In this document: one piece after another, positions 1,090 through 22,509 of the stretch
Numbering within the stretch: position 1 is the stretch's first letter
Layout of the letters: each line of letters begins with the position of its first letter
NCBI RefSeq assembly: GCF_007991515.1
Contig: NZ_BJYM01000013.1
Location: 41,169-65,168 of the forward strand
From: Oceanobacillus sojae
GTDB taxonomy: Bacteria > Bacillota > Bacilli > Bacillales > Amphibacillaceae
DNA: 24,000 nt
Direction: 5' to 3'
Notes under the pieces: model-generated
Told to the model about the DNA's origin: nothing
The model's input: the letters and a program-made list of their open reading frames with translations, nothing else
Databases searched by the model: none
Program-made: the position numbers and the translations under genes

Positions 1090-1130
1090 AAAAAAAAGCA
1101 AAGTCAGGATGAAGAAAAATCCTGACTTTG
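1090..1130 (-). terminator. Rho-independent terminator downstream of the binding-protein gene
   Basis: Perfect 12-bp stem CAAAGTCAGGAT (1099..1110) / ATCCTGACTTTG (1119..1130) with an 8-nt loop. An A8 run at 1090..1097 gives a U-tract on the minus-strand transcript. It starts 13 nt after the stop codon at 1143. Confidence 0.8.
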
Positions 1131-1142
1131 CCTCTTTTTATA

Positions 1143-2945
1143 TTACTCTGATAAACCTTCTTGTAACAGGCTCTGCGCCTGCTCAGGATCTGCTTTCAGC
1201 TCCAGCCCGGTATCTACTAATGAACTAAGAGTAGAAACAGCCGGTAATTTATTGCCTTCATAGAAGGAGATAAATTCTTCCTGATTAATAGAATATAGTA
1301 CCGCTTGGCGTAATGCTACATTATCAGCAAGCTCGCTATCTTCCAAATTAAAGCTCAGATAGGAAACACCATTACTCTCGTTTTGCTGTAAGGTTAAACT
1401 ATCATCCTCTTCCACTGTGTCATAACGGTTTTCAGCCACACCATTCAGGATGTGAATCTCATTATTACGGAGCGCAGATAATGCACTTTCCGGGTCCTGA
1501 ATGAATTTCACTACTACTTCGCTGATTTTAGGCTCATATTCTGATCCAGGCATATACCCGGGATTCTTCACGAAATCTGCTTCATAGTCATTTTTAGAAA
1601 CCATAATGTACGGTCCACTTGCATAAAGCGTGTTTTCTTCATTACTATCTTCCAGCACAGTCCGCTGGTCACCATAAGCAACATCTTCATTGACATCATA
1701 GTCTTCTACATCAAACGTATTGATGCTTTCCACCTGATCCTTTGATACAATACCGGCTGACTGATGTGCAAGATAGTTTAGTACCTGCGGGAACGGATCT
1801 GCTGTTGTAATTTTTACAACCTGATAGGTTCCTGCATCATTATCCGCCTCTGTTTTATCCGTCGTTAATGAATCAATCTCTGTATCAAGTCCTTCTTCTA
1901 AAGCCTGTTTAATTGTATTTCCGTCTATGGAAGCAGTATCCTCTAATTCAGAAAGATCATCTACAATTTCAATCGTTTCCATACTTTCATGCAGACTGTA
2001 AGTACGATGATCCGGAACAGAATTTGGATCTTTCGCCCGTTCTAAACTGAATTGAACATCCTCTGCACCTACACGGTCACCTGTATCAACTGCTGTATCG
2101 CCGTCTACCTCTGCAAAATTAATATCGTCACGAAGTAAGAAATAAAAATCCTGGCTGCCATCCGCAATCACGTGATTTAAAGAAAGCGAACCATCGGAAA
2201 CGACCTCATCATCATCTGTTAAATTGACTAAACGAACATACATATTTGTATTTAACGTATTAATAGAACCGTCATTTCCTTTAATTGGATCTAATGAAGT
2301 TAAATCACTAATTGCCTGGTGAACAAGTAAAGGCTCACTATCACGTAAGGATGTATCATTATAGTCTACATTTTCCCATACTGCCGCACGTGATTTTGGC
2401 AGACGGACTGTTTCTTCATTAATAATATCGTGATTTACACCCTGCGCTTTTAAAGAAATATAAAGCGGTGCAATATACGCCTGATCAAAAACAATTTGTT
2501 CCTCTAATTCTTTATATGTTTCTTCATATTCGCCCGGTAATTCGGTACTTGCTTTATCTACAAGCTCATCTGCTTTTTCATCTGCGAATAACGAATTATC
2601 ACCATCTGAGGTGAACAGAGAACGGACAGCATAATCCGGGTTTCCAGTAACTGTTGTCCAGCTGTTCAGGGCAATATCATAATTCCCTGCATCACGCTGT
2701 GTTGTAAAGCTGCCGTAATCCGGCTGAATATTTAATTCTACGTTAAAGCCTGTATTTGTTAATTGATCACGCAGAATATTTACGTCATTTTCCTGCGTAC
2801 TTGTTGCTAATATCTCAATTGTCGGCTGGTCTGCATCTGCACCACCACCGCCTGAACCTTCTTCCTGAACATCAGATTCTGTACTCACACACCCTGCTAA
2901 CAGCAGAGCAAGTACGAGTAAAAAAGATAAACTCCATTTCTTCAT
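1143..2945 (-). CDS. ABC transporter substrate-binding lipoprotein, peptide/nickel family 5 (Opp/Dpp-type), with non-canonical (apparently circularly permuted) block order
   Basis: 600-aa ORF. Signal peptide with lipobox LLAGC followed by a Gly/acidic linker. Family-5 SBP motifs are present (SLDP...Y.RLV, FLLRDDINF...GAEDVQFSLERAKDP, SGPY, YLSFN...ALRQAV.YSIN, DPEQAQSLLQEG) but in an unusual order (see findings). RBS AAGGGGGA lies 9 nt upstream of the ATG. Confidence 0.9.
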   Translation of the reverse strand: MKKWSLSFLLVLALLLAGCVSTESDVQEEGSGGGGADADQPTIEILATSTQENDVNILRDQLTNTGFNVELNIQPDYGSFTTQRDAGNYDIALNSWTTVTGNPDYAVRSLFTSDGDNSLFADEKADELVDKASTELPGEYEETYKELEEQIVFDQAYIAPLYISLKAQGVNHDIINEETVRLPKSRAAVWENVDYNDTSLRDSEPLLVHQAISDLTSLDPIKGNDGSINTLNTNMYVRLVNLTDDDEVVSDGSLSLNHVIADGSQDFYFLLRDDINFAEVDGDTAVDTGDRVGAEDVQFSLERAKDPNSVPDHRTYSLHESMETIEIVDDLSELEDTASIDGNTIKQALEEGLDTEIDSLTTDKTEADNDAGTYQVVKITTADPFPQVLNYLAHQSAGIVSKDQVESINTFDVEDYDVNEDVAYGDQRTVLEDSNEENTLYASGPYIMVSKNDYEADFVKNPGYMPGSEYEPKISEVVVKFIQDPESALSALRNNEIHILNGVAENRYDTVEEDDSLTLQQNESNGVSYLSFNLEDSELADNVALRQAVLYSINQEEFISFYEGNKLPAVSTLSSLVDTGLELKADPEQAQSLLQEGLSE

Positions 2946-2970
2946 TTTCTGTATTCCCCCTTATAAGTGT

Positions 2971-3252
2971 GTGTTCAAAAAGTCCGATAAATAGAACCAA
3001 AAAGTTCAAGGCGGCTAGCGTTTCCGAACGGACTTCCACAGGATGTGGTGACTTCTGTATTGTCCACAGGACGTGGACGGTCTTAACAGAAGTTCCTCCA
3101 TGCTCTTATATACGTGAGTAACGCTTTTGGTGGGGCGAGTAATCGCAAATGTTTTCGATGGGACGAGTAATCGCAGTCCCAGTCCCATCGGAAAAAGCTC
3201 GTCAACGCAGAAATTCGCCGTGTCATCTTTATTGGACTTTTTGAATATCCTC
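2971..3252. mobile_element. MITE-like non-coding repeat, long copy (copy A), between the permease and binding-protein genes
   Basis: Terminal inverted repeats: TTCAAAAAGTCCGATAAA (from 2974) versus the reverse complement of TTTATTGGACTTTTTGAA (ending 3245), 17/18 matched. It shares ordered blocks with the copy at 17945..18096: TCAAGGCG, CGAACGGA, ATACGTGAGTA, CGTCAACGCAGA(A/G)ATTCGCCG and GACTTTTTGAA(T/C)ATCCTC. It is flanked by similar AT-rich 9-mers TATAAGTGT (2962..2970) and TATAATGTA (3253..3261). No credible ORF. Confidence 0.6.
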
Positions 3253-6188: not shown

Positions 6189-6562
6189 TAAGTTTCTTAC
6201 TCCCTTCTTAAAATCTTGATAATTCCTACCTTTTTAGTATAGAATATGCTTATTAGGAATTATAGAAAGGAATGATGTAATTGTCAAATTAATTTTACTG
6301 ACTTTGAGTTCCTTACCGTTTTAGATTTCACAGAGTAAGAGTTTACTATATTTTAAAGTCTTAAAATTAATTGTAATAACATTACACACTTCCTGTTATA
6401 TATATGTATATATTCAGAGTCTTGTTTATTCACCCTGAAAAAATTTATTCTTATATATTTTATTGAAATGACAATTTGTCTTACATTTTTATCAGGTTAA
6501 ATGTTCTGCTGCTCTGGTGTACAGGAATATATAATAAGTCAAATATATAATTAAATGGAGAT
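6189..6562. promoter_or_regulatory. AT-rich divergent control region between the permease operon (-) and the ATPase gene (+)
   Basis: 374 bp with no credible ORF, between divergently oriented genes of one transporter. Very AT-rich, with a TATATATATGTATATAT tract and an 8-bp inverted repeat AATTCCTA (6221..6228) / TAGGAATT (6254..6261). I could not assign convincing -35/-10 hexamers. Confidence 0.4.
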
Positions 6563-8278
6563 ATGATAATGAAAGACATATTAAGTGTTAAAAATTTATC
6601 TGTTCATTTTCAGACTACGGAGCAGAAGGTTCAGTCCGTTAACCAAATTTCTTTCTCCGTCAAAAAAGGAGAAACCTTAGGGATTGTTGGTGAGTCCGGG
6701 TCAGGAAAAAGCGTTACAGCAAAAACAATTATGCAGCTGCTTCCCGGCCAGTCCGCACATATCCAAGCGGAAACAATAGAATATGAAGGAAATAATCTGG
6801 CAAATTATTCTGACCATGATATGCAAAAAATTCGCGGTCAGGAAATCAGTATGATATTTCAGGACCCAATGAGCTCTTTTAACCCGACAATGAAAATCGG
6901 TAAGCAAATTGATGAAGTAGTCAGCAAACACCGTAGGATTTCTGCACATAAAGCGAAAGAAGAAACGATTGAAATGCTGAAGCTGGTCGGGATAACCTCA
7001 CCTGAAGAACGGTATCATCAATATCCACATGAATTCTCAGGTGGTATGCTGCAGCGTGCAATGATAGCAATGGCCTTAATCTGCCGGCCAAAGCTATTAA
7101 TTGCTGATGAACCGACGACTGCATTAGATGTACGTATTCAGGCACAAATTCTGCAATTAATGAAAAACCTGCAGGAGAAATTTAATATGAGCATCATTTT
7201 GATTACTCATGATTTTGGGGTTGTTGCAGGTATGTGTGACCGGATTGTTGTCATGAAGGATGGAAAAATTGTTGAACAAAACGACACAACATCCATTTTC
7301 ACTCATCCTGAGCACCCTTATACACAACGGCTGCTTCATGCCTTGCCGCGAATTGATCAAAAGAAAGCAAACAGATACACGAAATCATTTCAAGATACTG
7401 AGGCCTTAATTAACGTGAAGGATTTGAAAAAGATTTTCCCGTTAAAATTAGGCGGCCTTGTGCATGCAGTTGATGATATTGACTTTCACATCAGACCCGG
7501 TGAAACATTAGGATTAGTAGGAGAATCCGGCTCTGGAAAATCAACGACTGGACGCCTTATTCTGCAATTACAGCAGGCAACAGAAGGAGAAATTCTTTTC
7601 GGTGGAATGGGAATCCATGACTTTAATCGCAAAGAACTCAAAAAGCTCCGCAGAGACGTTCAAATTATTTTCCAGGATCCTCAAGCCTCGTTAAATCCGA
7701 GAATGAAGGTACTTGATATTATCGGTCAGCCGCTGGATATTCATAAGCTATGCAAAACAAAAGCTGAGAGGCGAGCCCGAGTCGAGGAATTATTAGAGCT
7801 GGTAGGTCTGACAAAGGAACACGCCAACAGGTATCCGCATGAATTTTCAGGAGGACAGCAGCAGCGTATTGGTATCGCCCGGGCGCTGGCTGTAAAACCG
7901 AAATTTATTGTTTGCGACGAGCCGTTATCCGCTCTGGACGTTTCCATTCAATCACAGATTGTGGATTTATTAGAGGAATTACAGGAAAAGCTTGGTTTAA
8001 CCTATCTATTTATTGCACATGACCTGGCAATGGTAAAGCATATATGTGACCGGATTGCAGTCATGTATTCCGGCAAAATTATTGAGGTGGCAGAAAGCGA
8101 GGAGCTTTATGAAAATCCACTTCACCCCTATACTAAATCACTGCTGGATGCGGTGCCTATTCCAGATCCGGGAATTGAAGCGAAAAAGATTCGGGAACAT
8201 AATATCAAGACAGAAACCTATCATTTTGAAAGAAATTGGTTAGAAGAAGTAAGACCGGAGCATTGGATGCTTGTATAA
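6563..8278 (+). CDS. Fused double ATP-binding protein of an Opp/Dpp-type ABC transporter (DppD-DppF-like tandem ATPase)
   Basis: 571-aa ORF with two complete ABC cassettes. Walker A GESGSGKS appears twice, signatures are SGGMLQR and SGGQQQR, and Walker B is LLIADEPTTALD / FIVCDEPLSALD. Both oligopeptide-type C-terminal motifs are present (HPEHPYTQ.LL, LHPYTKSLL). The GGAG at 6557..6560 fits the second in-frame ATG at 6569 better than 6563. Confidence 0.92.
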   Translation: MIMKDILSVKNLSVHFQTTEQKVQSVNQISFSVKKGETLGIVGESGSGKSVTAKTIMQLLPGQSAHIQAETIEYEGNNLANYSDHDMQKIRGQEISMIFQDPMSSFNPTMKIGKQIDEVVSKHRRISAHKAKEETIEMLKLVGITSPEERYHQYPHEFSGGMLQRAMIAMALICRPKLLIADEPTTALDVRIQAQILQLMKNLQEKFNMSIILITHDFGVVAGMCDRIVVMKDGKIVEQNDTTSIFTHPEHPYTQRLLHALPRIDQKKANRYTKSFQDTEALINVKDLKKIFPLKLGGLVHAVDDIDFHIRPGETLGLVGESGSGKSTTGRLILQLQQATEGEILFGGMGIHDFNRKELKKLRRDVQIIFQDPQASLNPRMKVLDIIGQPLDIHKLCKTKAERRARVEELLELVGLTKEHANRYPHEFSGGQQQRIGIARALAVKPKFIVCDEPLSALDVSIQSQIVDLLEELQEKLGLTYLFIAHDLAMVKHICDRIAVMYSGKIIEVAESEELYENPLHPYTKSLLDAVPIPDPGIEAKKIREHNIKTETYHFERNWLEEVRPEHWMLV

Positions 8279-8531: not shown

Positions 8532-9323
8532 ATGGAGATTTTACCAGCAGAAAGATTAGAGTCATTACTGGAGTTTATAGATGATAAAGGAACAGTAAAT
8601 ATCATCGATTTAACAAATAAATTTAATGTTTCCAAACCAACTATCTTACGCGATTTAAAAGAATTAGAGAAACAGAATCTTATTATCCGGATTCATGGAG
8701 GAGCTAAAAGTAAAAAATTGAAAGGAACCCGATTTGAGCCCCGTCATGTTATCAAAGAGCAGGAAGCCATCCAGGAGAAAGAAGAAATTGCGGAACTGGC
8801 TTTCAAACATATCCAGCCTGGGGAAACCGTTCTTCTGGATTCCGGTACAACAACCTTGCTGCTCGCTAAAAAACTAGCATCACACTGCACTGAAAATATA
8901 ACAGCCATTACGAATGACATTAAAAACGCCATGGTTCTCAGTGAAAATGACCTCATAGACATCGTTGTTATCGGCGGGCAAAAGAGAAAGGGGGTGTATA
9001 GCTTAAATGGACCATTTGCAGAAGATATGCTGCGTCAGCTCAATGTAGATAAAGTATTTTTAGGAACAGATGCTATTAACGCGGATAAAGGATTAACCAA
9101 TTCCAACATTGATGAAACCAACATAAAAAAAACAATGATAGACATTGCCAATGAAATTATCTTACTGGCAGATGACAGAAAGTTCAACCAGGTAGCATTT
9201 TCATCCGTCGCCGGAATAGATGCACTAGATAGAATTATAACAAATAAACCTTTATCCGATACAGAAATGAAGGATTACAAAAAAGCGGGGATCTCAATAG
9301 ATACCCCTAAAGCAAAAAACTGA
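8532..9323 (+). CDS. DeoR-family transcriptional regulator (SgcR-like)
   Basis: 263 aa. The N-terminal DeoR HTH is LTNKFNVSKPTILRDLKELEKQNLIIRIHGGA. The C-terminal sugar-phosphate sensor domain has LDSGTTT...ITN...VFLG.DAI. First gene of a tightly packed + strand operon. Confidence 0.9.
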   Translation: MEILPAERLESLLEFIDDKGTVNIIDLTNKFNVSKPTILRDLKELEKQNLIIRIHGGAKSKKLKGTRFEPRHVIKEQEAIQEKEEIAELAFKHIQPGETVLLDSGTTTLLLAKKLASHCTENITAITNDIKNAMVLSENDLIDIVVIGGQKRKGVYSLNGPFAEDMLRQLNVDKVFLGTDAINADKGLTNSNIDETNIKKTMIDIANEIILLADDRKFNQVAFSSVAGIDALDRIITNKPLSDTEMKDYKKAGISIDTPKAKN

Positions 9324-9341
9324 AGAGAAAGGAAGTTATTG

Positions 9342-10163
9342 ATGACTTGGTTAAAAGAAGTAATTGGAACAGAAAAAGCAATTATCGCAATGTGTCACCT
9401 GCAGCCCTTACCCGGAGATCCATCCTATGACTATAAAAAAGGAATGGATTATGTCATTGAAGAAGCACGCAAAGATTTAAAGGCATTACAGGATGGCGGT
9501 GTAGATGCTGTTATGTTTTCCAATGAATTCAGTCTTCCTTATTTAACAGAAGTAAAAACCGAAACAGTTTCTGCGATGGCCAGAGTAATCGGAGAACTGA
9601 TGAATGATATAAGAATACCTTATGGCGTTAACGTATTATGGGATGCGAAACGCTCCCTTGACTTAGCCGCTGCCACCGGGGCTCAATTTGTACGTGAAAT
9701 ATTTACCGGCGTATATGCCAGTGACTTTGGATTATGGGACACAAATGTCGGTGAAACCATCAGACATCAGTATCACCTGCATGCCCAGGATGTAAAACTG
9801 CTGTTTAATATTCTGCCTGAAGCAGCAAAATATGTTGCTGACCGAGATATCAAAGATATTGCCAAATCTACTGTATTTAACAACCGTCCCGATGCGCTTT
9901 GTGTTTCTGGACTAACAGCTGGAGAACAGACAGATTCTCAAATCTTGAAAAAAGTAAAGGAAACTGTCCCTGATTGCGTGATACTGGCAAATACGGGAGT
10001 ACGTATTGAGAACTTAGAGCAGCAGCTGGCAATTGCGGATGGTGCAGTAGTTGGAACAGCATTCAAATATGATGGGAAATTTGAAAACAGGGTTGATCAA
10101 AAGCGTGTAGAAGAATTTATGAATAGAGTAAAAGCCTTTCGGGAGATAGCTATTCAAGCTTAA
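9342..10163 (+). CDS. BtpA/SgcQ-family TIM-barrel protein of unknown function
   Basis: The N-terminus K.IIAMCHLQPLPGDPSY is characteristic of the BtpA/SgcQ family, and the length (~273 aa) fits. The track starts at TTG 9339, but the adjacent ATG 9342 has better spacing to the RBS GAAAGGAAG. Confidence 0.8.
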   Translation: MTWLKEVIGTEKAIIAMCHLQPLPGDPSYDYKKGMDYVIEEARKDLKALQDGGVDAVMFSNEFSLPYLTEVKTETVSAMARVIGELMNDIRIPYGVNVLWDAKRSLDLAAATGAQFVREIFTGVYASDFGLWDTNVGETIRHQYHLHAQDVKLLFNILPEAAKYVADRDIKDIAKSTVFNNRPDALCVSGLTAGEQTDSQILKKVKETVPDCVILANTGVRIENLEQQLAIADGAVVGTAFKYDGKFENRVDQKRVEEFMNRVKAFREIAIQA

Positions 10164-10221
10164 CAATAGATAGAGGTCTACTTCATAATAAATCATTTTC
10201 AATTAAAGGAGAGGTCAATAT

Positions 10222-10500
10222 ATGAAAAAAGTAATCGTAGCATGCGGCGGCGGAATTGCAACTTCAACATTAATAGCGGATAAAGTCCGCCAGACATTGG
10301 ACGAAGCAGGAATTGATTATCAACTCACACAGACTACCTTATCTGAATTAGTTTATGAGAACAGCGATGCAGATCTAATCGTGACAAGCATGAGGGTAGA
10401 ATCCGACTTCGGAGTCCCCTCCCTCTCAGGAGCCGGATTCTTAACCGGGATTAACGAGGAAGCTATTAAGGAACAAATTATTAGCGCTTTATCCGACTAA
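10222..10500 (+). CDS. PTS EIIB component, galactitol/lactose-type (SgcB/GatB-like)
   Basis: 92 aa. N-terminal MKKVIVACGGGIATS with the phospho-Cys motif. Strong RBS AAAGGAGAGG. Confidence 0.9.
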   Translation: MKKVIVACGGGIATSTLIADKVRQTLDEAGIDYQLTQTTLSELVYENSDADLIVTSMRVESDFGVPSLSGAGFLTGINEEAIKEQIISALSD

Positions 10501-10520
10501 AGCATAAAGGAGAGCTTAAC

Positions 10521-11864
10521 ATGCAAAGTGTTGTCGATTATATATTATCCTTAGGAGCAACTATTTTTGTCCCTATTGTTCTTTTTATAGTTGGTTTAGC
10601 ATTCCGTTTAAGCGTACTGAGGGCAATTAAAGCGGCTGTAACTGTCGGTGTCGGATTTTTAGGTCTCAATTTAGTCGTCAGCTTAATAGGTGATTATCTT
10701 TCACCATCTGTACAAACCATGGTTGAGCGGTTCGGCTTAAATTTATCTGTTATTGATTTAGGGTCAGGAACCTCCGCCGGGATTGCTTTTTCAACTACTG
10801 TAGGAGCTCTTATCATCCCGGTTATTTTTGGCCTGAACGTACTTCTATTAATCAGCAAGCTGACCAAAACGATGAATATTGATATTTTCAACTACTCTCA
10901 TTATGCACTGACGGGATCTGTAGTTGCTCTCATTACCTCAAACTTATTTTACGGTATTATGGCTGCAATTTCGCACGCTATCTTCTCACTTTTCGTTGCT
11001 GATTTAACAGCCAAAAAAGTTCAAAGGGTTATTGGCATTGAAGGGATATCTATCAGTCAGGGATTCGCTACTTCTACCGTCCCTTTTTATGCCCTGATGG
11101 ATAAGATATTCGATAAAATACCGGCTCTAAACAACCGGAAAATGGATACGAACTTTATTCAAAAGAAGTTTGGAATGTTTGGAGATCCAGTGATTATCGG
11201 AGTTATCCTGGGCGTAATTATTGCTATATTGGCAGGCACAAGCTTCGTGGATGGCAGTCAGCTGGTCATTGTAATCACAGGTATTATGATCCTTTTCCCG
11301 CGTGTTATCCGGATTATTGTAGAAGGGCTGATGCCCATTTCAGATGCTGCGAAAAAATTCTTTCAAACAAAATTTAAAGGCAAAGAATTCTTTATAGGAC
11401 TAGACTCAGCAGTTACATTAGGCCATCCGACAACCATTACAGTAGGAATCTTAATTATTCCTATTACACTCGTCTTAGCCGCCATCCTGCCGGGCAATAA
11501 AGTGCTTCCTCTCGCAGATTTAGCTTTTGCTCCTTTTTTTATCTGTATGGCAACGATCATGCATAAGGGGGATGTTATCAGAACGCTGATCAGCTCTACC
11601 TTCAATATGGTATTAGTGCTTTATATAGCTACCTTCTTTTCTTCTTATTATACAGACTTAGCCAGCGCTGGCGGATTTATCGAATCTGTGGGCGGAACAG
11701 AAGTATCTGCATTATATATTGGAAATGTGTTTAACTTTATTATTACCATTTTAATGAGAATGGAAGTATTAGGATTTATTATCCTGGCACTATTTATTAT
11801 CGTGTTGTACTACTTCGTATTTAAAAAGATAAATAGAAAAGAAGAGCCCGAAGAGACATCATAA
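10521..11864 (+). CDS. PTS EIIC component, galactitol family (SgcC/GatC-like)
   Basis: 447 aa, polytopic membrane protein. It is clearly homologous to the second IIC in the window (18102..19454) and has the GatC-like N-terminus (ILSLGATIFVPIV.FIVGL). RBS AAAGGAGAG. Confidence 0.9.
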   Translation: MQSVVDYILSLGATIFVPIVLFIVGLAFRLSVLRAIKAAVTVGVGFLGLNLVVSLIGDYLSPSVQTMVERFGLNLSVIDLGSGTSAGIAFSTTVGALIIPVIFGLNVLLLISKLTKTMNIDIFNYSHYALTGSVVALITSNLFYGIMAAISHAIFSLFVADLTAKKVQRVIGIEGISISQGFATSTVPFYALMDKIFDKIPALNNRKMDTNFIQKKFGMFGDPVIIGVILGVIIAILAGTSFVDGSQLVIVITGIMILFPRVIRIIVEGLMPISDAAKKFFQTKFKGKEFFIGLDSAVTLGHPTTITVGILIIPITLVLAAILPGNKVLPLADLAFAPFFICMATIMHKGDVIRTLISSTFNMVLVLYIATFFSSYYTDLASAGGFIESVGGTEVSALYIGNVFNFIITILMRMEVLGFIILALFIIVLYYFVFKKINRKEEPEETS

Positions 11865-11900
11865 ATATTATTATCTAAAAGCACTACTGGAGGTTCTGGA

Positions 11901-12389
11901 ATGAATCACAATAAAAACGGAGATAAATTAAAATTTGATAAAGATATGATTATGCTGAATATCCGTGCCAGTTCATCGGATGAATTACTGAAGGAAATAA
12001 GTCAATTATTCTATGACAAAGATTACGTCCATGATTCTTTTAAACAAGCAATTATAAAACGTGAAGAACAATATCCGACCGGGCTGAAGACAACTTCCAT
12101 AGGTGTTGCTATTCCACATGCAGATCCAGTCCATGTGAAGCAGGAAAGCTTAGCTGTAGGAATCTTAAAGGATGCAGTTACCTTTAATGAAATGACTTCA
12201 GGTGAACCTCTAAACGTGGAAATCGTTTTTATGTTAGGAATTACTGATTCGGGTCAACATTTAATCATGCTGAAGGCAATTTCTGAAATATTGAGAGATA
12301 AAGAAAAATTATCGAACATTCGATATGCAGCTACAAAAGAGGAAGTCTATCAATGTATCCTTCCTTATATAAGCGAATTATTAGAATAA
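11901..12389 (+). CDS. PTS EIIA component, fructose/mannitol type 2 (SgcA-like)
   Basis: 162 aa. Motif REEQYPTGL...GVAIPHADPVHV with the phosphorylatable His. RBS GGAGG lies 7 nt upstream. Confidence 0.88.
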   Translation: MNHNKNGDKLKFDKDMIMLNIRASSSDELLKEISQLFYDKDYVHDSFKQAIIKREEQYPTGLKTTSIGVAIPHADPVHVKQESLAVGILKDAVTFNEMTSGEPLNVEIVFMLGITDSGQHLIMLKAISEILRDKEKLSNIRYAATKEEVYQCILPYISELLE

Positions 12390-12412
12390 ACAAGCAGGAG
12401 GCTTGAATAAAG

Positions 12413-13096
12413 TTGAAAAAACAAATCCTGGCTCCGTCCATTTTAAACGCTGATTTTTTACATTTAAGCAGTGAAATTGATATTGCTGAAAAAGGCGGAG
12501 CGGAATTTTTACACTTGGATGTGATTGATGGTATATTTGCGCCCAGTATTTCATTTGGAGCTAATATAATCTACTCGATAAGAACCTATACTGATCTGTT
12601 TTTGGATGTTCATTTAATGATTAAAAATCCAAGTCAATATATAGCTGATTTTGTCCATGCTGGTGCTGACAGCATTACTGTTCATGCAGAGGGAGCCATT
12701 CATCTGCACCGGCTAATCTATCAAATAAAAGAGCACGGTATAAAAGCAGGCGTTGCTTTAAACCCGGCGACACCCATTTCTTTGATAGAACCCATCTTAT
12801 CAGATATTGATATGGTACTTCTAATGACCGTAAATCCCGGTTTCGGAGGGCAGCCCTTTATTAAAGAAGTTTTATCAAAAATAACAATGCTGAGCCATTT
12901 AAAATCCAGCAGAGCGTATTCCTTTGCTATCGAAGTTGATGGCGGAATTACACCGCAAGAAGCATTATGGTGCTCTCAACGAGGAGCAAATATCTTTGTT
13001 GTCGGATCGTATATCTATTATAAAGCAACCGAAACAGAAAAATTACAGGCAATGAAAAATATAAAAAAGTCTTTAGAAACAGGTGATTCAAAATGA
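12413..13096 (+). CDS. Ribulose-phosphate 3-epimerase family protein (SgcE/Rpe-like)
   Basis: 227 aa, TTG start. Rpe motifs: ILAPSILNADF, HLDVIDG.FAP.ISFG, DVHLMI, ITVHAE, MTVNPGFGGQ.F, VDGGI. Confidence 0.9.
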   Translation: MKKQILAPSILNADFLHLSSEIDIAEKGGAEFLHLDVIDGIFAPSISFGANIIYSIRTYTDLFLDVHLMIKNPSQYIADFVHAGADSITVHAEGAIHLHRLIYQIKEHGIKAGVALNPATPISLIEPILSDIDMVLLMTVNPGFGGQPFIKEVLSKITMLSHLKSSRAYSFAIEVDGGITPQEALWCSQRGANIFVVGSYIYYKATETEKLQAMKNIKKSLETGDSK

Positions 13097-14187
13097 ATAT
13101 GAACGAACATCTGAAGGCATTATCCATGATAAATGCTGTCAGTTCACAAGAAGATGCAGTGATTGATTATATGTATCATTATTTTTCTAAACAAATGGAG
13201 TACGTTGAAGTGGATACAATAGGCAATGTGATCGGGTTCTTACCTTCTAACAAGCCAAACAGCAAAAGAATAATGATTTTTGCCCACATGGATGAAGTAG
13301 GGTTTATAGTAAGACATATTGATGAAAATGGTTTCTTATTTTTCGAACGAATCGGCGGTGCTAATGTGAATGTTCTTCCAGGTAATCAGCTTCAAGTACT
13401 GGGGGATAAAGGAACGGTCACCGGAGTTGTTGGAACAAAAGCATATCACTTCTTAAAACCCGAAGAAAAAGGGAAGTTTCCCGCACAAGATCAGCTATAT
13501 ATTGATATTGGAGCAGTCTCTAAAGAGGAAGCATATCAAAAAGGAATACGGGTTGGAAGCACTATCTGCTTTCAAGCAAGCTATCTGGAAAGAGAAAATG
13601 GCCGGGTGACAGGAAAAGCGATGGATAACCGGGTTGCCTGCACAGTCTTATTAGAATTAGCAGAACAATTAATTTCAGCTCAAGCATCCTTAGAGTGGGA
13701 TATATATCTGGTTGCATGTGTCCAGGAGGAATTTAATATCAGAGGTGTCCTGCCAGCAGTCAGGAAGATAAAACCCCATGTCTCTATCGGCTTAGATGTG
13801 ACACCAGCATGTGATACACCCGAACTGACAAATTATTCTGATGTTGGCTTAGATAAAGGCCCTGCACTTACATTTCTTAACTATCATGGAAAAGGAACAC
13901 TTGCTGGTGTTTTGCCAGATTCCAAATTAATACAATCTCTAATAAAAACATGCCAAGCAAATAAAATTAACTATCAGAGAGAGGTAGCAGTAGGCGTCAT
14001 CACAGAAAATGCTTTTATTGTTTTTGAAGAAGCAGGCATCGCTACTGCCAATATTTCCATCCCGACACGCTATACACATACACCAGTAGAAACAGTCAGT
14101 CTTCGGGACGTCAAACAAACCATTCACTTATTATATGAATTTTTGACAAGCTTAACAGAAAAAAGTACTTTCGGAAAAGCAAGGTAG
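13093..14187 (+). CDS. M42-family metallopeptidase-like protein (SgcX/FrvX/YsdC-like)
   Basis: 364 aa. M42 metal-ligand motifs are all present: AHMDEVGF, AMDNRV, VQEEFN, GLDVT, RYTHTPVE. The ATG overlaps the epimerase stop (ATGA at 13093..13096). Confidence 0.88.
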   Translation: MNMNEHLKALSMINAVSSQEDAVIDYMYHYFSKQMEYVEVDTIGNVIGFLPSNKPNSKRIMIFAHMDEVGFIVRHIDENGFLFFERIGGANVNVLPGNQLQVLGDKGTVTGVVGTKAYHFLKPEEKGKFPAQDQLYIDIGAVSKEEAYQKGIRVGSTICFQASYLERENGRVTGKAMDNRVACTVLLELAEQLISAQASLEWDIYLVACVQEEFNIRGVLPAVRKIKPHVSIGLDVTPACDTPELTNYSDVGLDKGPALTFLNYHGKGTLAGVLPDSKLIQSLIKTCQANKINYQREVAVGVITENAFIVFEEAGIATANISIPTRYTHTPVETVSLRDVKQTIHLLYEFLTSLTEKSTFGKAR

Positions 14188-14196
14188 GTTATAGAT

Positions 14197-14988
14197 ATGC
14201 AGACAAAGAACCGTGATTATAAAGTTTGTTTTTTGGATATTGATGGCACACTGGTTGATAACAATAAGCAAATTTCTAACCAAACGAAGAAATCTCTGGA
14301 TCAAATAAGAAATAGAGGCGTAGAAGTGATTATCGCTACCGGGCGTCCTCCCTACCACTTTTCCAGCATTGCAGAGGAACTAAAGATTAATTCATTTGTC
14401 AGTTTTAACGGTGCTTATTCTGTTTATAAAGGAGAAGTCGTTCATAAGCACGGAATGGATGCATCCGCTCTGCAAGAACTTATTGAATATGCCGGCATGA
14501 AACAACATCCATTAGTTTTTTCAAGTGAAAAGAAGTCTGTCAGTAATACACTTAATCATCGTGAAATTATACAAACCTTTAAAGACTTACATTTGAATTA
14601 TACACCAGAATTTCATCCTGATTTTTGGAAACAAGCAACCTTGTTTCAAGCAATGGTATATTGTAAAAACAGAGAAGAAATTGATTATATTCAAAAATTT
14701 CCAGAGTTATCTTTTGTCAGATGGCATGAATTCGCTATTGATGTCATGCCCCAATCTATTTCAAAAGCATCTGGCATTAAAGAAATGCTTTCGTTTTTAA
14801 ATGTAGCTCCCGACGAGGCTATAGCTTTTGGAGACGGACTGAATGATAAGGAAATGCTAGATTTTGTAGGTGTAGGGATTGCTATGGAGAATGCACATGA
14901 AGAACTCTATCCTTATGCAGATATCATTACAAAATCAAATGAAAATGAAGGAATCACACATGGTTTAAAGCTGTTAAAATTAATATAG
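14197..14988 (+). CDS. Cof-type HAD-IIB sugar phosphatase
   Basis: 263 aa. HAD motif I FLDIDGTLV, ATGRP, and motif IV GDGLNDKEML...IAMENA. Last gene of the + strand operon. Confidence 0.88.
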   Translation: MQTKNRDYKVCFLDIDGTLVDNNKQISNQTKKSLDQIRNRGVEVIIATGRPPYHFSSIAEELKINSFVSFNGAYSVYKGEVVHKHGMDASALQELIEYAGMKQHPLVFSSEKKSVSNTLNHREIIQTFKDLHLNYTPEFHPDFWKQATLFQAMVYCKNREEIDYIQKFPELSFVRWHEFAIDVMPQSISKASGIKEMLSFLNVAPDEAIAFGDGLNDKEMLDFVGVGIAMENAHEELYPYADIITKSNENEGITHGLKLLKLI

Positions 14989-14996
14989 ATAAATAT

Positions 14997-15045
14997 AAAA
15001 TAATCCCAAATACACATGGCAGATAGGGATTATTTTATATTTTTT
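14997..15045 (+). terminator. Probable terminator of the + strand PTS operon
   Basis: 11-bp stem AAAATAATCCC (14997..15007) / GGGATTATTTT (15026..15036) followed by ATATTTTTT. The 18-nt loop is rather large. Confidence 0.55.
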
Positions 15046-15364
15046 CCATTTACGTTAGATACTAATTGCATCACTTTACCTAATTTATCTATGCTTAGCT
15101 TAAAGGCTTTATGTTAGCACAGGCCCTCCAAGACTCGCTATGAACGAATGACTAATTTTTTCTCTACGAGTACGTTGCATTATTTGACATGCTATCTTCC
15201 AAAATATTTTCGGGAAAATCTAATTTAAACGCTTGTGCTCTCTTTATGTAAGCTTTTAAATATCGGAGCTGATGGAATTCCGTCCAAGTTTACATCCTTC
15301 ATATACAATGCTGACAAATAACCAACTATATGTCCTGATTTTTTCAGAGCTAAGCTCGTATACA

Positions 15365-15424
15365 ACAAGCAGCAATTTTTAATGAAGTGAATAATCACAG
15401 TTTCATTAAAAAATTGCTGCTTGT
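15365..15424 (-). terminator. Long near-perfect palindrome, likely terminator of the convergent minus-strand PTS operon
   Basis: ACAAGCAGCAATTTTTAATGAA (15365..15386) pairs with TTCATTAAAAAATTGCTGCTTGT (15402..15424) with one bulged base. The loop contains a nested GTGA/TCAC pair. It begins 46 nt after the stop at 15471. There is no clean U-tract after the stem on the minus strand, so function is uncertain. Confidence 0.5.
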
Positions 15425-15470
15425 AAATGTTTGTCCTTTATATCTGTTTTTAAAATTTGTTTGTCTTCCC

Positions 15471-16100
15471 TTAGTTACTAGTATACGTTTTAAAACCTTC
15501 TAACGCTTCATCCAACTCTTCTTCCGTTAATGGATTGACACTATTCAATACATGACTTCCATAGGAAAGTAATGCCAGCTCTTCAATTGCTTCCGCCCTT
15601 CTATAAGCATCAGCTAATGTATCTCCGACAGCTACAACTCCATGATTAGCTAACAATACACCGTTTGCATCTCCTAATGTCTCTACAGCATACCCGGCAA
15701 GCGATTCAGATCCATACCTGGCATATGGCGCAACAGAAACTTCTCTGCCAATATCTGCAATGACATAATGAACCGGAGGAATAGCTTTATGTGCACAAGC
15801 AAAAATAGTTGCATAAGTAGAATGCGTGTGAACAATCGCTTTTATTTCTTCTTTTTGTAAATAGATATTGGTATGCATTGGTGTTTCAGAGGATGGTTTA
15901 CGATTGCCCTCTATGACTTTTCCTGTTGTAAGATCTACTTTCAATACATCTTCCTCTGTCATTTCATTATAAGGAAGTGCAGAAGGTGTAATGTACATCA
16001 TATCTCCTTCTCTCACACTTACATTTCCAGCTGTCCCCACTACCAGTCCTGTTTCATAGCACTGCTTTGCTATTTTTACTATTTCATTTTGAATAGACAT
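15471..16100 (-). CDS. Class II aldolase/adducin-domain protein (FucA/AraD family), paralog 2
   Basis: The track ORF (to 16220) overlaps the upstream gene. The start MSIQNEIVK at 16100 is preceded by GAAGGAAGTGAG and follows the upstream stop at 16129. Motifs: GTAGNVSVR, ITPS, SSETPMH, VHTHS, ANHGVV. Confidence 0.88.
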   Translation of the reverse strand: MSIQNEIVKIAKQCYETGLVVGTAGNVSVREGDMMYITPSALPYNEMTEEDVLKVDLTTGKVIEGNRKPSSETPMHTNIYLQKEEIKAIVHTHSTYATIFACAHKAIPPVHYVIADIGREVSVAPYARYGSESLAGYAVETLGDANGVLLANHGVVAVGDTLADAYRRAEAIEELALLSYGSHVLNSVNPLTEEELDEALEGFKTYTSN

Positions 16101-16128
16101 AATTTCTCTCACTTCCTTCGCTTTTGTT

Positions 16129-16776
16129 TTATTCATCCAAATTATAATGATAATCCTTCTGAAAATCGATATTCTCGCCAACTTTTGAAAGAAGATACAT
16201 TTTGTAGGCAACATAAGCATTGTATTCTATTCTTTCAACCATATCGTATGCTTTTTCCAATGACTTATCTGCCACCACCAGACCATGTCTTTCTAATAAT
16301 AGTCCGGCAGGTATTTTATCTGCATCCCGTTCTGCAATTGTGTCTCTGACTAAAGCTGCTAATTCCGGAGAAGTTGCCGGCCGATAGTCTAAACATGGGA
16401 TATCACCGATTTTTTGAGTAGCTTCTGTAATATTTGGCATATCTTTCCCCATGCTTGCCCAAACCATAGATTCTTTTGCATGCGCATGAATAACACAGTT
16501 AATAGCAGGATTCTCTTCATAACAAGCCATGTGCATATTGATTTCTCTTGTCAGTCTTCCTTCACCCTCGATAATATTTAATTCCTTATCTACTACTAAA
16601 ATTTGAAATGGACTTAAATCACAGCGGTAGTTTTGAGACATTAAAGTAGGTGTCATAATAAAATGTTTATCACTAACCTTTAAACTGAGATTTCCACCGG
16701 CCGCATTCGTTTGAAATCTATCAAACATGGTCTTTACAATCTCACACATTTTCTTTCTCTCTTCTGAATATAGCAT
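16129..16776 (-). CDS. Class II aldolase/adducin-domain protein (FucA/AraD family), paralog 1
   Basis: 215 aa. Motifs: AAGGNLSLK, MTPT, TREINMH, IHAHA, ERHGLV. Its ATG overlaps the kinase stop by 1 nt (TAATG). Confidence 0.85.
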   Translation of the reverse strand: MLYSEERKKMCEIVKTMFDRFQTNAAGGNLSLKVSDKHFIMTPTLMSQNYRCDLSPFQILVVDKELNIIEGEGRLTREINMHMACYEENPAINCVIHAHAKESMVWASMGKDMPNITEATQKIGDIPCLDYRPATSPELAALVRDTIAERDADKIPAGLLLERHGLVVADKSLEKAYDMVERIEYNAYVAYKMYLLSKVGENIDFQKDYHYNLDE

Positions 16777-17696
16777 TATATCACCTCATGTATTTTTAAA
16801 TTATTTTCAATAAAATTAAAGTCTTCCTTATTAATTTGACAGCTGCTGTAATGCTGTACTTTGCTGGCAGAACAGAGAATTCCCCACTTAACCCTGTCTG
16901 AAATATCATATCCATTGGCAACACCATAAATATAACCGGTCACAAATGCGTCCCCTGCTCCTGTATCACTCTGAACCTCGACTTTAGGAGGGACAGCCTG
17001 ATAGAATGTGTTCTCGACTTTATACAATGCACCTTCAGAGCCTAAACTGCATACCGCATTTGGCACTTTTTCGCAAATACGGTTAAACTTTTGATGGATC
17101 GGCTCATCTCCAGGAAATAAATCATTCATCTCGTGCTTATTTGGTTTAATAAAATCTATCTTTTCCTCGATAGCTACAGTCAAGTACTCACCTGCCACAT
17201 CACATGCAACATAAGCATTTTGCTCTTTCAACAGGCGAATAAGATACCTGAAATCCTCAACAGAAAATCCTTGTGCCGGCTTTCCAACAACAGCAATATC
17301 CTCCGAATGAATGTTTTCTTTGATATATGAATACAGTTTTGCTTTATCGCTATCTGAAACCTTTAATCCTCTTTCTGTTATCATATAGCTGCCGCCGCTG
17401 TTATTAATCACAATAATACTTTCCCTGGTTCGTTGATCAGGTATGTTGATAAATTCATGATTCATGTGGTATTTATCAAAGATGGATACTAACTCTGCTT
17501 TGTTTAACTCTCCTGAAAATCCGGTGGCCCTATTAGGTGTATCTCCAAGCTGTTCCAATATAGCTGATACATGAGTTGGCTTTCCGCCAAGATCAACATA
17601 TCTTTCTTTGGTTATATTGTTTTTTTCAGGAGTCAGATCACCCTCAAGGTAAACAATTCTGTCTATTGCCGGATTTGGTGTAATTGTATAAATCAA
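16776..17696 (-). CDS. PfkB-family sugar-phosphate kinase (1-phosphofructokinase / tagatose-phosphate kinase subfamily)
   Basis: 306 aa, TTG start with RBS AAAGGAGGGA 6 nt upstream. The N-terminus MIYTITPNPAIDRIVYL is typical of FruK/LacC/TagK. C-terminal DTGAGDAFVTG motif. Divergent in the GGKG region (GGKPTHVS). Confidence 0.85.
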   Translation of the reverse strand: MIYTITPNPAIDRIVYLEGDLTPEKNNITKERYVDLGGKPTHVSAILEQLGDTPNRATGFSGELNKAELVSIFDKYHMNHEFINIPDQRTRESIIVINNSGGSYMITERGLKVSDSDKAKLYSYIKENIHSEDIAVVGKPAQGFSVEDFRYLIRLLKEQNAYVACDVAGEYLTVAIEEKIDFIKPNKHEMNDLFPGDEPIHQKFNRICEKVPNAVCSLGSEGALYKVENTFYQAVPPKVEVQSDTGAGDAFVTGYIYGVANGYDISDRVKWGILCSASKVQHYSSCQINKEDFNFIENNLKIHEVI

Positions 17697-17697
17697 A

Positions 17698-17925
17698 TTA
17701 TCCCTCCTTTCTTGCCAGCTTTTCTCTCATCTTCCCTAATCTATTTTTATATGCTGAGAATAAAATATCCTCTGCATATAACTTCACTAGAATGCTAATA
17801 ATAAAAGCCGTAACCCACATACTTAAATCTTTTGTGAAGAAACCAATTACCATTAGCAGAAACGCTAAGACAACCATAAAGGACCAAAACAGTTTCGATT
17901 TTAAAATAAAATTCAATGGTCTCAC
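17698..17925 (-). CDS. Small hypothetical membrane protein (75 aa, two hydrophobic helices)
   Basis: The ORF fills the whole gap between the repeat element and the kinase gene. It has two hydrophobic stretches (LFWSFMVVLAFLLMVIGFF, MWVTAFIISILV) and a basic tail. GTG start with a poor RBS, and no homology recognised. Confidence 0.4.
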   Translation of the reverse strand: MRPLNFILKSKLFWSFMVVLAFLLMVIGFFTKDLSMWVTAFIISILVKLYAEDILFSAYKNRLGKMREKLARKEG

Positions 17926-17944
17926 TCTTTCATGTTTATATTAT

Positions 17945-18096
17945 GGGTTCAAAAAGTCGGTAAATTAGAAGCAAGAAGATCAAGGCGACGTGGTTTTTAC
18001 GAACGGAGCGTATGCTTCCAAATACGTGAGTATCGGAAAGAACACGTCAACGCAGAGATTCGCCGCTTATCATTTGGTGACTTTTTGAACATCCTC
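17945..18096. mobile_element. MITE-like non-coding repeat, short copy (copy B), between the PTS IIC gene and the small ORF
   Basis: Perfect 12-bp terminal inverted repeat GTTCAAAAAGTC (17947..17958) / GACTTTTTGAAC (18079..18090), extending imperfectly to about 26 bp. Flanked by a perfect 9-bp direct repeat TTATATTAT (17936..17944 and 18097..18105). Shares internal blocks with the copy at 2971..3252. Confidence 0.65.
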
Positions 18097-18101
18097 TTAT
18101 A

Positions 18102-19454
18102 TTATTTTTCTGCTTCATTAAAATATTTTTCATTATCTCTCTTTCTTCCAAAATAGAATATGATGAACAGTCCAAGCCAGACGATGGCCCCTAAGATTCC
18201 CCACCATTCTCCAGCCATTGCATTCGCAAACACTAATTTAAATTCACCATTTTCAATTGTGCTCCATGTCAACATACTTCCGGCTTCTACATTTACCGAA
18301 CCCGTTTCATTTGCCAGCCTTGTTATATAAGGGGCAAAGTATGTGGAAATATATAAGAAAACAGGCGCTGTAATGACCCCGTATATAATGGATCTCACAA
18401 GGTTTCCTCTAGTCAGCAGGACTACTGCAACACATACTGAAAGGTTAACGATACCCCCAAACGGCAATACAGCATTTCCCGGTAATATGACGGAGAACAA
18501 CAGCAATACAGGGATAATAACGATTGCAGATACCCAAATTTCGTTCCTGCCCGCTAGAATCGGCCAATCTAAACCAATAAATATCTCTCTATCACCAAAA
18601 CGCCTCTTCATAAACTCTGAAATTGCGTCGGAAATAGGTGACAACGCTTGCATAAACAACTTAGAAACCATTGGAAATAAAGTTAAAGCTGTGGCAGCTT
18701 GAATACCTAAAACAAGTGAATCCTGTATTCCATAGTTTGCTGCCAGCCCCAATAAGAAGCCTATGAGACCACCCATAATGTGGTTTTCCGCAAATACGCC
18801 AAGCTTATCTCTTAATGCCTCTGCATCCATCTTTTTATTTAAGAAAGGTACTTTGTCCATTAATTTATCGATTGGATAAAGTAACGAAGCAATAATTGTC
18901 ATATGGTGTGGTACAGTAACTCCTGGTATTCCAGTAAGATCTTCTATTTCCTTTCCCCAGATGTCGCCGATCTTCAGCTCGATAATAACCTGGATGCTGG
19001 CAACAACGAAACCTAAAACCACGCTGCCGGAAAGAAACATAACCAAAATGGCAGTGAATATTTTTCCCCATACATTCCACATATCTACATTAAGTGTTTT
19101 AGTCAGTTTGAAGGCCAGCATAACAATATTAATCCCTACCGTAATTGGGAACATAAGAAATGCTAAAGGCCACGACCAAGTAATGGCTGCAGCTGTCGTC
19201 CATCCACCGTCAACGGCATTTAAATTAATACCTGTATTTTCAGCAAATGATTGCGCAGCAGGACTGATGGAAGCCAGCATAAAATCAACAACTAATGACA
19301 TACCTGAAAAGGCTACTCCAAAAATGATTGCTGCGCTTAATGCATCTTTAAACTTCATCCGCGCAATGAGTCCAATAACTAGCATAATTAAAGGGACAAA
19401 CACGGGAGCACCCATGTCTAAAATATATTCAACAATATTTTGCAAAAAGTCCAT
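18102..19454 (-). CDS. PTS EIIC component, galactitol family (GatC-like)
   Basis: 450 aa polytopic membrane protein, homologous along its length to 10521..11864. RBS GGAAGGAGAAG. Confidence 0.9.
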   Translation of the reverse strand: MDFLQNIVEYILDMGAPVFVPLIMLVIGLIARMKFKDALSAAIIFGVAFSGMSLVVDFMLASISPAAQSFAENTGINLNAVDGGWTTAAAITWSWPLAFLMFPITVGINIVMLAFKLTKTLNVDMWNVWGKIFTAILVMFLSGSVVLGFVVASIQVIIELKIGDIWGKEIEDLTGIPGVTVPHHMTIIASLLYPIDKLMDKVPFLNKKMDAEALRDKLGVFAENHIMGGLIGFLLGLAANYGIQDSLVLGIQAATALTLFPMVSKLFMQALSPISDAISEFMKRRFGDREIFIGLDWPILAGRNEIWVSAIVIIPVLLLFSVILPGNAVLPFGGIVNLSVCVAVVLLTRGNLVRSIIYGVITAPVFLYISTYFAPYITRLANETGSVNVEAGSMLTWSTIENGEFKLVFANAMAGEWWGILGAIVWLGLFIIFYFGRKRDNEKYFNEAEK

Positions 19455-19477
19455 CTGTCTTCTCCTTCCTTTACATT

Positions 19478-19756
19478 TTAATTTTTAAGGATTTGAATCA
19501 GCTTTTCTGTCTCTTCCTGAATCCCCATACCAGTCAGGAAAGCAATTCCGTTTAACATTGGAATATCATATTCTTTACCACCCTTTGTAATAGAGATATA
19601 GACATCCGCCGATTTAATATAGCTGTTTAGAGACTTAATATCGACTGCCTCAACATTTGCTTTGATTTTATTTTCATCTAAAATTCTTTTTACCTTTGAA
19701 GCTACTGTCTGACTTGTTGCTACACCACTTCCGCAAGCTACGATAACATTTTTCAT
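19478..19756 (-). CDS. PTS EIIB component, galactitol/lactose-type (GatB-like)
   Basis: 92 aa. MKNVIVACGSGVATS phospho-Cys motif. The GGAGG RBS is embedded in the end of the upstream IIA gene. Confidence 0.9.
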   Translation of the reverse strand: MKNVIVACGSGVATSQTVASKVKRILDENKIKANVEAVDIKSLNSYIKSADVYISITKGGKEYDIPMLNGIAFLTGMGIQEETEKLIQILKN

Positions 19757-19757
19757 T

Positions 19758-22203: not shown

Positions 22204-22509
22204 TCCGCCACCTCCCATTTGTGCACAACCTCATTATAAGACAGAATATTTCGCCATACGTGACTATTCATCACAACTTTGATTTTGGCTGTTTTATTTT
22301 TGTGATGAAGTCTGGACTTTTGTTTCTTCATAGAGAATAGCTTATTAGCTTCTGATGCCCTGTAATTATGCCAACTGAACTAGCAGATTGATAGCAGAGA
22401 TTTTTTTCACTCCATCTGGTTTCCATTCATGACTATAGCTCAGGTAAAGTAGTTCCCCACAAACATACAGGTTAGAAGAAAGCTCTACTTTCTTCCCTAC
22501 GCAAAAGAA

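Follow-up and report, generated by a model that had tools for sequence, protein, structure and literature searches.

Does the lipoprotein gene at positions 1143-2945 of a 24,000-nucleotide stretch of Oceanobacillus sojae DNA (contig NZ_BJYM01000013.1; the whole stretch is hereafter the window) encode the family-5 fold of DppA and OppA in a rotated chain order, and if so, to which importer does it belong? An initial annotation, made from the letters of the DNA, had read the product as a circular permutation of this fold. We conclude with high confidence that this open reading frame (ORF), here called gisD-like, encodes a lipid-anchored, circularly permuted family-5 substrate-binding protein (SBP) of a GisABCD-type Opp/Dpp importer, and that the permutation arose once. 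The coordinates of all features are collected in Table 1.

The initial annotation had placed the gene exactly but needed correction as to strand: the plus-strand translation of the interval was full of stops, whereas the minus strand gave one uninterrupted ORF, the 600-aa product of which was identical to WP_147211325.1 of O. sojae. The peptide strings that it quoted (LLAGC, PTIEILATS, SWTTVTGNPDYAV, LLVHQAISDLTSLDP, FYFLLRDDINF, SGPYIMV, YLSFNLED, and QSLLQEGLSE directly before the stop) were all found in the minus-strand product. An artefact of contig misjoining, frameshift or gene fusion that mimics the swapped order, suggested by the prior that odd orders are often artefacts and by a strain-specific insertion of 283 bp just upstream of the gene, has virtually no chance of being the explanation and is refuted by conservation over independent assemblies: the exact protein was found on six contigs, the longest of 4.9 Mb, which excludes the misassembly that had been a concern, more than 120 close relatives (90%-identity clusters, 65-98% identity) aligned over nearly the full length, a relative was encoded in 431 species genomes in a scan of GTDB representatives, the S. 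aureus cluster of 4289 members had the same order, and the ORF has its own signal peptide, ribosome-binding site and terminator.

Scanned against Pfam SBP_bac_5 (PF00496; curated gathering threshold 32.4 bits), the gisD-like protein scored 139 bits in two stretches. Residues 267-596 matched positions 19-275 of the hidden Markov model (HMM), and the N-terminal fragment, scanned alone, matched HMM positions 299-367 with its residues 49-117, which is the swap in model coordinates that had been predicted. The protein was not colinear with the model, and its order was swapped relative to about 67 canonical representatives. A phmmer comparison with PDB chain 5u4o_A placed residues 443-559 on 201-314 and residues 55-161 on 379-489. 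The C-terminal 110 or so residues of OppA, MppA and DppA (about 381-489) aligned to residues 60-168, approximately, of the gisD-like protein, and DppA 207-338 aligned to its residues 470-597.

From 1.84 billion cluster representatives we took the 150 best matches to the query and aligned them again locally. Among these 150, about 32 were full-length and colinear with the query throughout, at 30-58% identity; most of them have 590-620 aa and a few 547-556 aa. The canonical SBPs of 470-560 aa (about 67) all aligned in two exchanged pieces, with query residues ~40-175 on target residues ~360-500 and query residues ~205-597 on target residues ~40-360. The closest canonical protein, P0184, gave two high-scoring segment pairs (HSPs), residues 206-597 to 41-358 and residues 36-190 to 358-518, which abut at residue 358. 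The protein had been said to stop precisely where canonical proteins run on into the block found here at the N-terminus, and the junction at P0184 residue 358 is indeed exact. When the query was rotated (residues 179-600 followed by residues 20-178), P0184 was matched by a single HSP, from positions 28-577 of the rotated query to 41-500, with 30.8% identity and an E-value of 1e-62. Each canonical block of the three-domain fold occurs once in the gisD-like protein, and two segments are exchanged by one cut (canonical residue 358), with the old termini joined by residues ~190-205. Since every block occurs once and a single HSP results from rotation, we describe the protein as a clean circular permutation, neither a duplication nor an accretion. 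At the level of sequence comparison, the swapped order is confirmed far above chance.

The structure models gave the same picture. AlphaFold2, run on a 53-sequence alignment, folded the gisD-like protein with a predicted local distance difference test score (pLDDT) of 91.1 and a predicted template modelling score (pTM) of 0.86, and the junction was ordered. The elements of the N-terminal block (E H E H E H H H E) equal those of residues 363-497 in the P0184 model (pLDDT 93.7), and the elements after this block keep the canonical order. Foldseek, a sequential aligner, was run against 350,542 PDB chains. The gisD-like model matched family-5 SBPs only, with top hits at a probability of 1.00, template modelling (TM) scores (TMq) of 0.30-0.46 over 300-445 columns, and E-values of about 1e-13 to 1e-9. 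In contrast, the P0184 model, used as the canonical control, reached a TMq of 0.71-0.83 against the same structures; its alignments spanned ~490-530 columns and had E-values of about 1e-47 to 1e-37. As the control matches solved SBPs end to end and the gisD-like model only in part, which a sequential aligner would lead one to expect, the low TMq of the latter would reflect topology, not divergence. No chain in the PDB set matched the gisD-like model end to end (TM at most 0.46), and judged from the model there is no solved structure with its topology. The best Foldseek hit was YliB/GsiB, with GbpA also listed; this top rank does not discriminate, as family-5 SBPs all receive similar scores.

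The two separate pieces that the sequential aligners Foldseek and HMMER see could also be produced by domain accretion, in which a truncated canonical SBP without its C-terminal third gained an unrelated or duplicated look-alike domain at its N-terminus. We consider this very improbable. Every canonical block is present exactly once and the HSPs abut at canonical residue 358, rotation yields one colinear alignment over canonical residues 41-500, the N-terminal block repeats the elements of canonical residues 363-497 in the same order, and AlphaFold2 gives a single globule with an ordered junction. The circular permutation proposed in the initial annotation is therefore upheld by the swapped HMM, PDB and canonical alignments together with the single HSP obtained on rotation.

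The permuted chain can be followed block by block. The lipobox LLAGC stands at the chain start, and a lipobox-like motif was present in 50 of the 53 aligned family members; the tether that follows, which the model shows as disordered, has a median length of 24 residues in the family (range 3-54). The C-terminal-type block that now comes first corresponds to canonical residues ~358-504, that is, the second half of domain III and the last strand of domain I, and its first strand after the tether is one that canonical chains place behind the 'A..LL.EAG' helix. At the junction, the rotated alignment placed the old C-terminal tail (VRLPKSRAAVWENV), a short linker of about 12 residues (DYNDTSLRDSEP) and the old mature N-terminus (LLVHQAISDLTSLDP), with the old signal peptide, lipobox and linker gone. 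The protein ends with the A..LL.EG helix (QSLLQEGLSE and stop). The acidic insertion in domain II, with a median length of 42 residues in the family, was modelled with high confidence. A conserved Val, in the motif SWTTVTGNPDY, replaces Asp408 of DppA (D436 in precursor numbering), the anchor of the peptide alpha-amino group.

Going by the domain boundaries of DppA, the cut presumably lies inside domain III; the termini would therefore have moved from domain I to domain III with both inter-lobe crossovers kept. The chain starts at canonical ~358-360 of ~520, where a loop leads on from the 'A..LL.EAG' helix in domain III, passes through the old C-terminal third, the linker of about 12 residues that replaces signal peptide, lipobox and tether, and the old N-terminal two thirds, and stops at the end of the same helix. 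Retention of both crossovers means that Venus-flytrap binding should work as usual. Together with the termini, the lipid tether would shift from domain I (lobe 1) to domain III (lobe 2).

Table 1. Positions of the gisD-like gene, its protein segments and neighbouring features in the window, and of the permuted protein P0268 on its own contig.
Feature	Position	Strand	Basis or remark
gisD-like gene, lipoprotein, 600 aa	1143..2945	minus	ORF; circularly permuted family-5 (cluster C) SBP
Signal peptide and lipobox, residues 1-19, MKKWSLSFLLVLALLLAGC	2889..2945	minus	Read from sequence; weak LPAM_1 hit
Flexible acidic/Gly tether, residues 20-40, from lipidated Cys to first strand	2826..2888	minus	AlphaFold2 pLDDT <50 at residues 14-37
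C-terminal-type block, now first, residues 41-178	2412..2825	minus	HMM 299-367; OppA/MppA/DppA ~381-489; P0184 358-518
Junction, residues 179-205	2331..2411	minus	Rotated alignment; model pLDDT 91-98; 29-36 residues in family
N-terminal/middle-type blocks, now last, residues 206-597 (canonical ~41-358)	1155..2330	minus	HMM 19-275; P0184 41-358; DppA 207-338
Family-specific acidic insertion, ~42 residues, domain II, residues 331-372	1830..1955	minus	Gap in all canonical sequences of the rotated alignment
gisC-like permease, 497 aa	3265..4758	minus	BPD_transp_1 at 314-496; canonical core from ~221
gisB-like permease, 470 aa	4776..6188	minus	BPD_transp_1_N starts at residue 162
gisA-like ATPase, 571 aa, two fused ABC domains and oligo_HPY, divergent	6563..8278	plus	Pfam ABC_tran in two stretches, and oligo_HPY
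Hairpin, 13-bp stem, T-runs on both sides, 12 nt past stop	1098..1131	minus	Listed on plus strand; minus T-run read from sequence
Predicted sigma-70-type promoter, TTGACA-17-TATAAT, 12/12	6259..6287	minus	Upstream of gisB-like gene; consensus match only
Bacillaceae-1 RNA (RF01690), full length, 63 bits	3035-3102	minus	Between gisC-like and gisD-like genes
M20-family amidohydrolase-like gene (MGRQMGENIEKSVLETFQYLHTHAEISWEE...)	1-~840	minus	Runs off window end
P0268, family-5 SBP, 529 aa	L089:2426-4015		High-GC metagenomic contig, 4.7 kb, single

The permuted order is not confined to this protein. Its orthologues share it, as had been anticipated: besides the more than 120 close relatives and the relatives in 431 species genomes, all of the ~32 distant full-length representatives examined, clustered at 50% identity, are colinear with the query. 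The best 80 of the 431 species genomes all belonged to Bacillaceae, Planococcaceae or Paenibacillaceae, and distant colinear members came from Mammaliicoccus, Staphylococcus, Negativibacillus and Oscillospiraceae. A GisD-family fragment annotated in a Phytophthora kernoviae assembly (P0549) is probably bacterial contamination. We built neighbour-joining (NJ) trees from rotated permuted sequences and canonical sequences over 484-487 trimmed columns with 200 bootstraps. The permuted proteins formed one clade in 196-198 of the 200 bootstraps, with canonical P0184 as its sister in 200 of 200. In our reading the permutation took place once, in the ancestor of a clade that spans Bacillales, Staphylococcaceae and Clostridia, and its likely route would be a tandem duplication in frame, after which the outer parts were lost. 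Tandem fusions of SBPs also occur in the family; one of them, P0277, has 1137 aa and contains the SBP twice in complete form, and such proteins are the intermediate type needed by this duplication-truncation model.

One further protein, P0268, was also permuted, with the same cut (it ends in ...RELLIEAGYLESAD) and a lipobox, and it keeps the canonical GWSTDNGDPDNF motif. It was 33-34% identical to DppA-like proteins versus 23% to the gisD-like query, and it fell inside the main permuted clade in none of the 200 NJ bootstraps. This single contig suggests a second, independent permutation at the same loop.

To which importer the permuted protein belongs is answered by its relatives in S. aureus. 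One relative of the gisD-like protein carried the name 'RGD-containing lipoprotein'. In S. aureus, rlp, the 'RGD-containing lipoprotein' gene (SA0201/NWMN_0146), encodes the SBP and is the last gene of a peptide-type ABC (ATP-binding cassette) transporter locus (PMC5480029). This locus was later renamed gisABCD (SAUSA300_0200-0203), so that GisD, Rlp and SAUSA300_0203 / SA0201 are one protein. By genetics, gisABCD together with ggt is needed for growth on reduced (GSH) or oxidized (GSSG) glutathione as a sulfur source; gisA is divergent from gisBCD-ggt, and nine transmembrane regions are predicted in each of GisB and GisC (PMC10355420). A search for S. aureus GisD with the Mammaliicoccus protein P0151 returned only Bacillaceae at ~50% identity, and GisD was reached through an RGD-containing, low-GC representative, P0160/P0317. 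S. aureus GisD is P0464, a protein of 591 aa that stands for a cluster of 4289 sequences, and its locus encodes a divergent ATPase of 530 aa, then proteins of 486 and 387 aa, the SBP of 591 aa and Ggt of 668 aa. The gisD-like protein and P0464 were 41% identical and colinear over 1-596 versus 1-591 (E 1e-165), and P0464, too, shows the exchanged order when compared with canonical SBPs.

The window shares with S. aureus gis the divergent fused ATPase, the two enlarged permeases and the SBP as last transporter gene, and all four components were 39-49% identical to those of a staphylococcal gis-type locus (L086), the ATPase at 49%. The end-to-end match to GisD and the gis layout of the locus therefore indicate that the window encodes a GisABCD-type importer. 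There are also differences: no ggt lies downstream here, whereas it follows gisBCD in S. aureus; the gisC-like permease has 497 aa here versus 387 aa in S. aureus; and the RGD motif is absent from the gisD-like protein, unlike S. aureus Rlp. Three proteins of 873 aa, assigned to S. aureus or unnamed (P0467, P0469 and P0470), combine BPD_transp_1 with SBP_bac_5; they resemble GisC fused to GisD in some S. aureus assemblies, or else artefacts of frameshift or annotation. S. warneri and S. gallinarum have annotated full-length homologues of GisD, 73-76% identical to a staphylococcal GisD-type protein; the complete GisABCD has been reported only in the S. aureus-related species complex (PMC10355420).

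There is good support for the gisD-like protein as receptor of the importer encoded beside it. It is encoded with PepT-type permeases and an oligo_HPY ATPase, an arrangement conserved in 80 loci. The module of ATPase, two permeases and SBP kept constant spacing and orientation in all 80 Bacillales loci (L006-L085), with the divergent ATPase at the same distance in 79 of the 80; the stored contig of the remaining locus (L085) ends before the ATPase position. Median sizes over the Bacillales loci were 580 aa for the ATPase, 481 and 498 aa for the gisB- and gisC-type permeases, and 603 aa for the SBP. At the locus of P0184 (L005), the permeases have 316 and 301 aa, and its OppB aligned only to residues 151-466 of the gisB-like permease and its OppC only to residues 221-497 of the gisC-like permease, so that the N-terminal extensions amount to ~150 and ~220 aa. 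By a crude hydropathy scan, the gisB-like extension (~150-160 aa before the canonical first transmembrane segment) consists of a hydrophobic segment, a charged stretch of ~90 aa and a second hydrophobic segment, and the gisC-like extension of ~220 aa holds about 5-6 extra hydrophobic segments, comparable to the additional predicted segments of GisB and GisC. Residues N137, K140, V143 and N197 of the gisC-like extension were invariant in 43 orthologues.

The window system might be a true importer of GSH and GSSG, the functional orthologue of S. aureus GisABCD. For this speak the same four-gene architecture with 39-49% identity to L086 in all components, the 41% identity of the SBP to S. aureus GisD, and YliB/GsiB as the best Foldseek hit, with GbpA also listed. 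We nevertheless regard it as unlikely, though not negligible. No Ggt homologue was found in the 24-kb window or in the Bacillales loci L006-L085, the M20 amidohydrolase gene lies behind the terminator and is present in the two closest genomes only, the identity is too low to transfer specificity, and the rank of GsiB does not discriminate. By analogy with S. aureus GisD, the importer probably takes up a peptide-like compound, for which glutathione or a gamma-glutamyl peptide would be candidates.

It had been expected that the permuted order would always occur together with the extended permeases. This held in the main clade, where the permuted SBP was accompanied by N-terminally extended permeases in all 84 distinct loci examined, but the pairing is not obligatory, as the permease after P0268 has no N-terminal extension. 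Permutation and extension are therefore linked in the main clade, yet separable.

The possibility that the permutation is functionally neutral, a frozen accident of duplication and deletion, with the extended permeases and the fused ATPase as unrelated traits of the lineage, fares best of the alternatives, and we give it nearly even standing. P0268, the second permuted lineage, pairs with a normal permease, Clostridial members have extended permeases (472/505 and 477/502 aa) but two separate ATPases, so that the traits are separable, and the hinge crossovers are unchanged. However, one and the same loop appears to have been cut in two separate events, the order was kept in a clade that has diverged to ~30% identity, and the permease extensions are conserved with invariant residues, although none of these points proves an adaptive role. 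The adaptive counterpart, in which the move of the tether from lobe 1 to lobe 2 co-evolved with extra N-terminal transmembrane helices of both permeases to give a new tether and docking geometry, making this a structurally distinct Opp/Dpp subclass and the loop a recurrent, selectable site with at least two independent uses, appears doubtful to us.

Several points weigh against our reading of the ORF as the permuted receptor of a GisABCD-type importer with a single origin. The NJ tree is simple and was made from rotated sequences, and its support could be inflated by junction effects. The consequence of the permutation for tethering and docking is an inference, and the unextended permease of P0268 leaves the coupling of permutation to permease extension unestablished. 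The substrate specificity of GisD would not be transferable, because there is no ggt, the identity is only 41%, and the anchoring Asp of DppA is a Val here.

The gisD-like protein shares with DppA (1DPP), OppA, GsiB/YliB (1UQW) and 5U4O the Pfam family, the blocks and the secondary-structure elements, as well as PepT-type permeases and oligo_HPY ATPases, and like canonical family-5 SBPs it is a lipoprotein. It differs from them by the rotation of the chain at ~358, which puts the termini in domain III rather than domain I, by the acidic insertion of ~42 aa and by the Val in place of DppA D408. P0184 (519 aa, from a metagenome-assembled genome of Bacillota) is the closest non-permuted relative, with 36% identity to the rotated gisD-like protein in 484 trimmed columns and the shared motifs GWTTVT.NPDYAV and LDP.K.NDGS. 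In contrast to the gisD-like protein, it has the canonical chain order, and its genes are arranged as SBP-B-C-D-F with normal permeases and two separate ATPases.

In the open-access literature, the only natural precedent that we found for a permuted ABC-importer binding protein was MglB-2 of cluster B. This protein, Tp0684 of Treponema pallidum, is the founder of the 'Type Ic / Cluster Bc' circularly permuted ligand-binding proteins, which are mainly membrane-tethered lipoproteins of spirochaetes and Gram-positives, and a tethering rationale was raised by its authors (PMC4990184), which a relocation of the lipid tether to lobe 2 in the gisD-like protein would echo. Both are natural circular permutations of an ABC-importer binding protein that keep the bilobed fold. 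MglB-2, however, belongs to the sugar-binding cluster B (type I), has a solved structure and is unrelated in sequence, whereas the gisD-like protein belongs to cluster C and is known from models only. As all of its matches are family 5 / cluster C, it is an analogue of Cluster Bc, not a member.

Several sequence features surround the importer genes. The hairpin is likely the terminator of the gisBCD-like operon, to judge from its stem and T-run. A perfect 10-bp inverted repeat, ATAATTCCTA (6219-6228) and TAGGAATTAT (6254-6263), with 25 bp between the arms, overlaps the predicted promoter (6259-6287); the repeats over the promoter contain GGAATT, and the element at 6219-6263 may be an operator. 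A CymR-type operator was considered for it but is not proposed here. Rfam gave no riboswitch, T-box or S-box leader, and its sole hit was the Bacillaceae-1 RNA in the strain-specific insertion. This insertion spans ~283 bp (~2967-3248); O. sojae SK-2, O. jeddahense and O. sp. J11TS1 lack it and have a gap of ~28 bp instead. The flanks of the insertion, TTATAGAGG and TTATAAGGGGG, resemble a short duplication, which suggests that the Bacillaceae-1 motif travels on a small mobile insert.

The M20-family amidohydrolase-like gene was considered as a clue to the substrate and rejected, as it is cut off from the SBP gene by a strong hairpin and only the two closest Oceanobacillus genomes have the two genes side by side. 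Positions 8532-22218 hold two clusters for sugar phosphotransferase systems, unrelated to the permuted SBP, which encode a DeoR regulator, BtpA, EIIC-GAT (twice), EIIA-2 (twice), a ribulose-phosphate 3-epimerase, an M42 peptidase, a HAD hydrolase, two class II aldolases, a PfkB kinase and a PRD-domain regulator.

The initial annotation knew of no description of the permutation for family 5. We likewise found no description of a permuted family-5 SBP in the open-access literature, and the word stem 'permut' occurs 0 times in the GisABCD paper (PMC10355420). Already known from that literature are the gene and the family, which are annotated, and one member, GisD/Rlp, which is genetically characterised; what would be new is the permuted topology. 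Sequential HMM and structure aligners see about two thirds of the permuted proteins, which are therefore under-scored, with the C-terminal-type block left unannotated. The apparent reuse of one loop marks where the family-5 fold tolerates new termini and may be useful for permuted biosensor scaffolds, and the consistent pairing with enlarged permeases poses a concrete question on the docking of tethered receptors. The clade includes GisD, the receptor for glutathione import in sulfur acquisition by S. aureus, so that docking, construct design, and antibody or inhibitor work need the right topology. Family-5 binding proteins are among the best-studied receptors of ABC importers, and their current classifications (cluster C) assume one chain topology, to which the permuted clade would add a 'cluster Cc' beside 'cluster Bc'.

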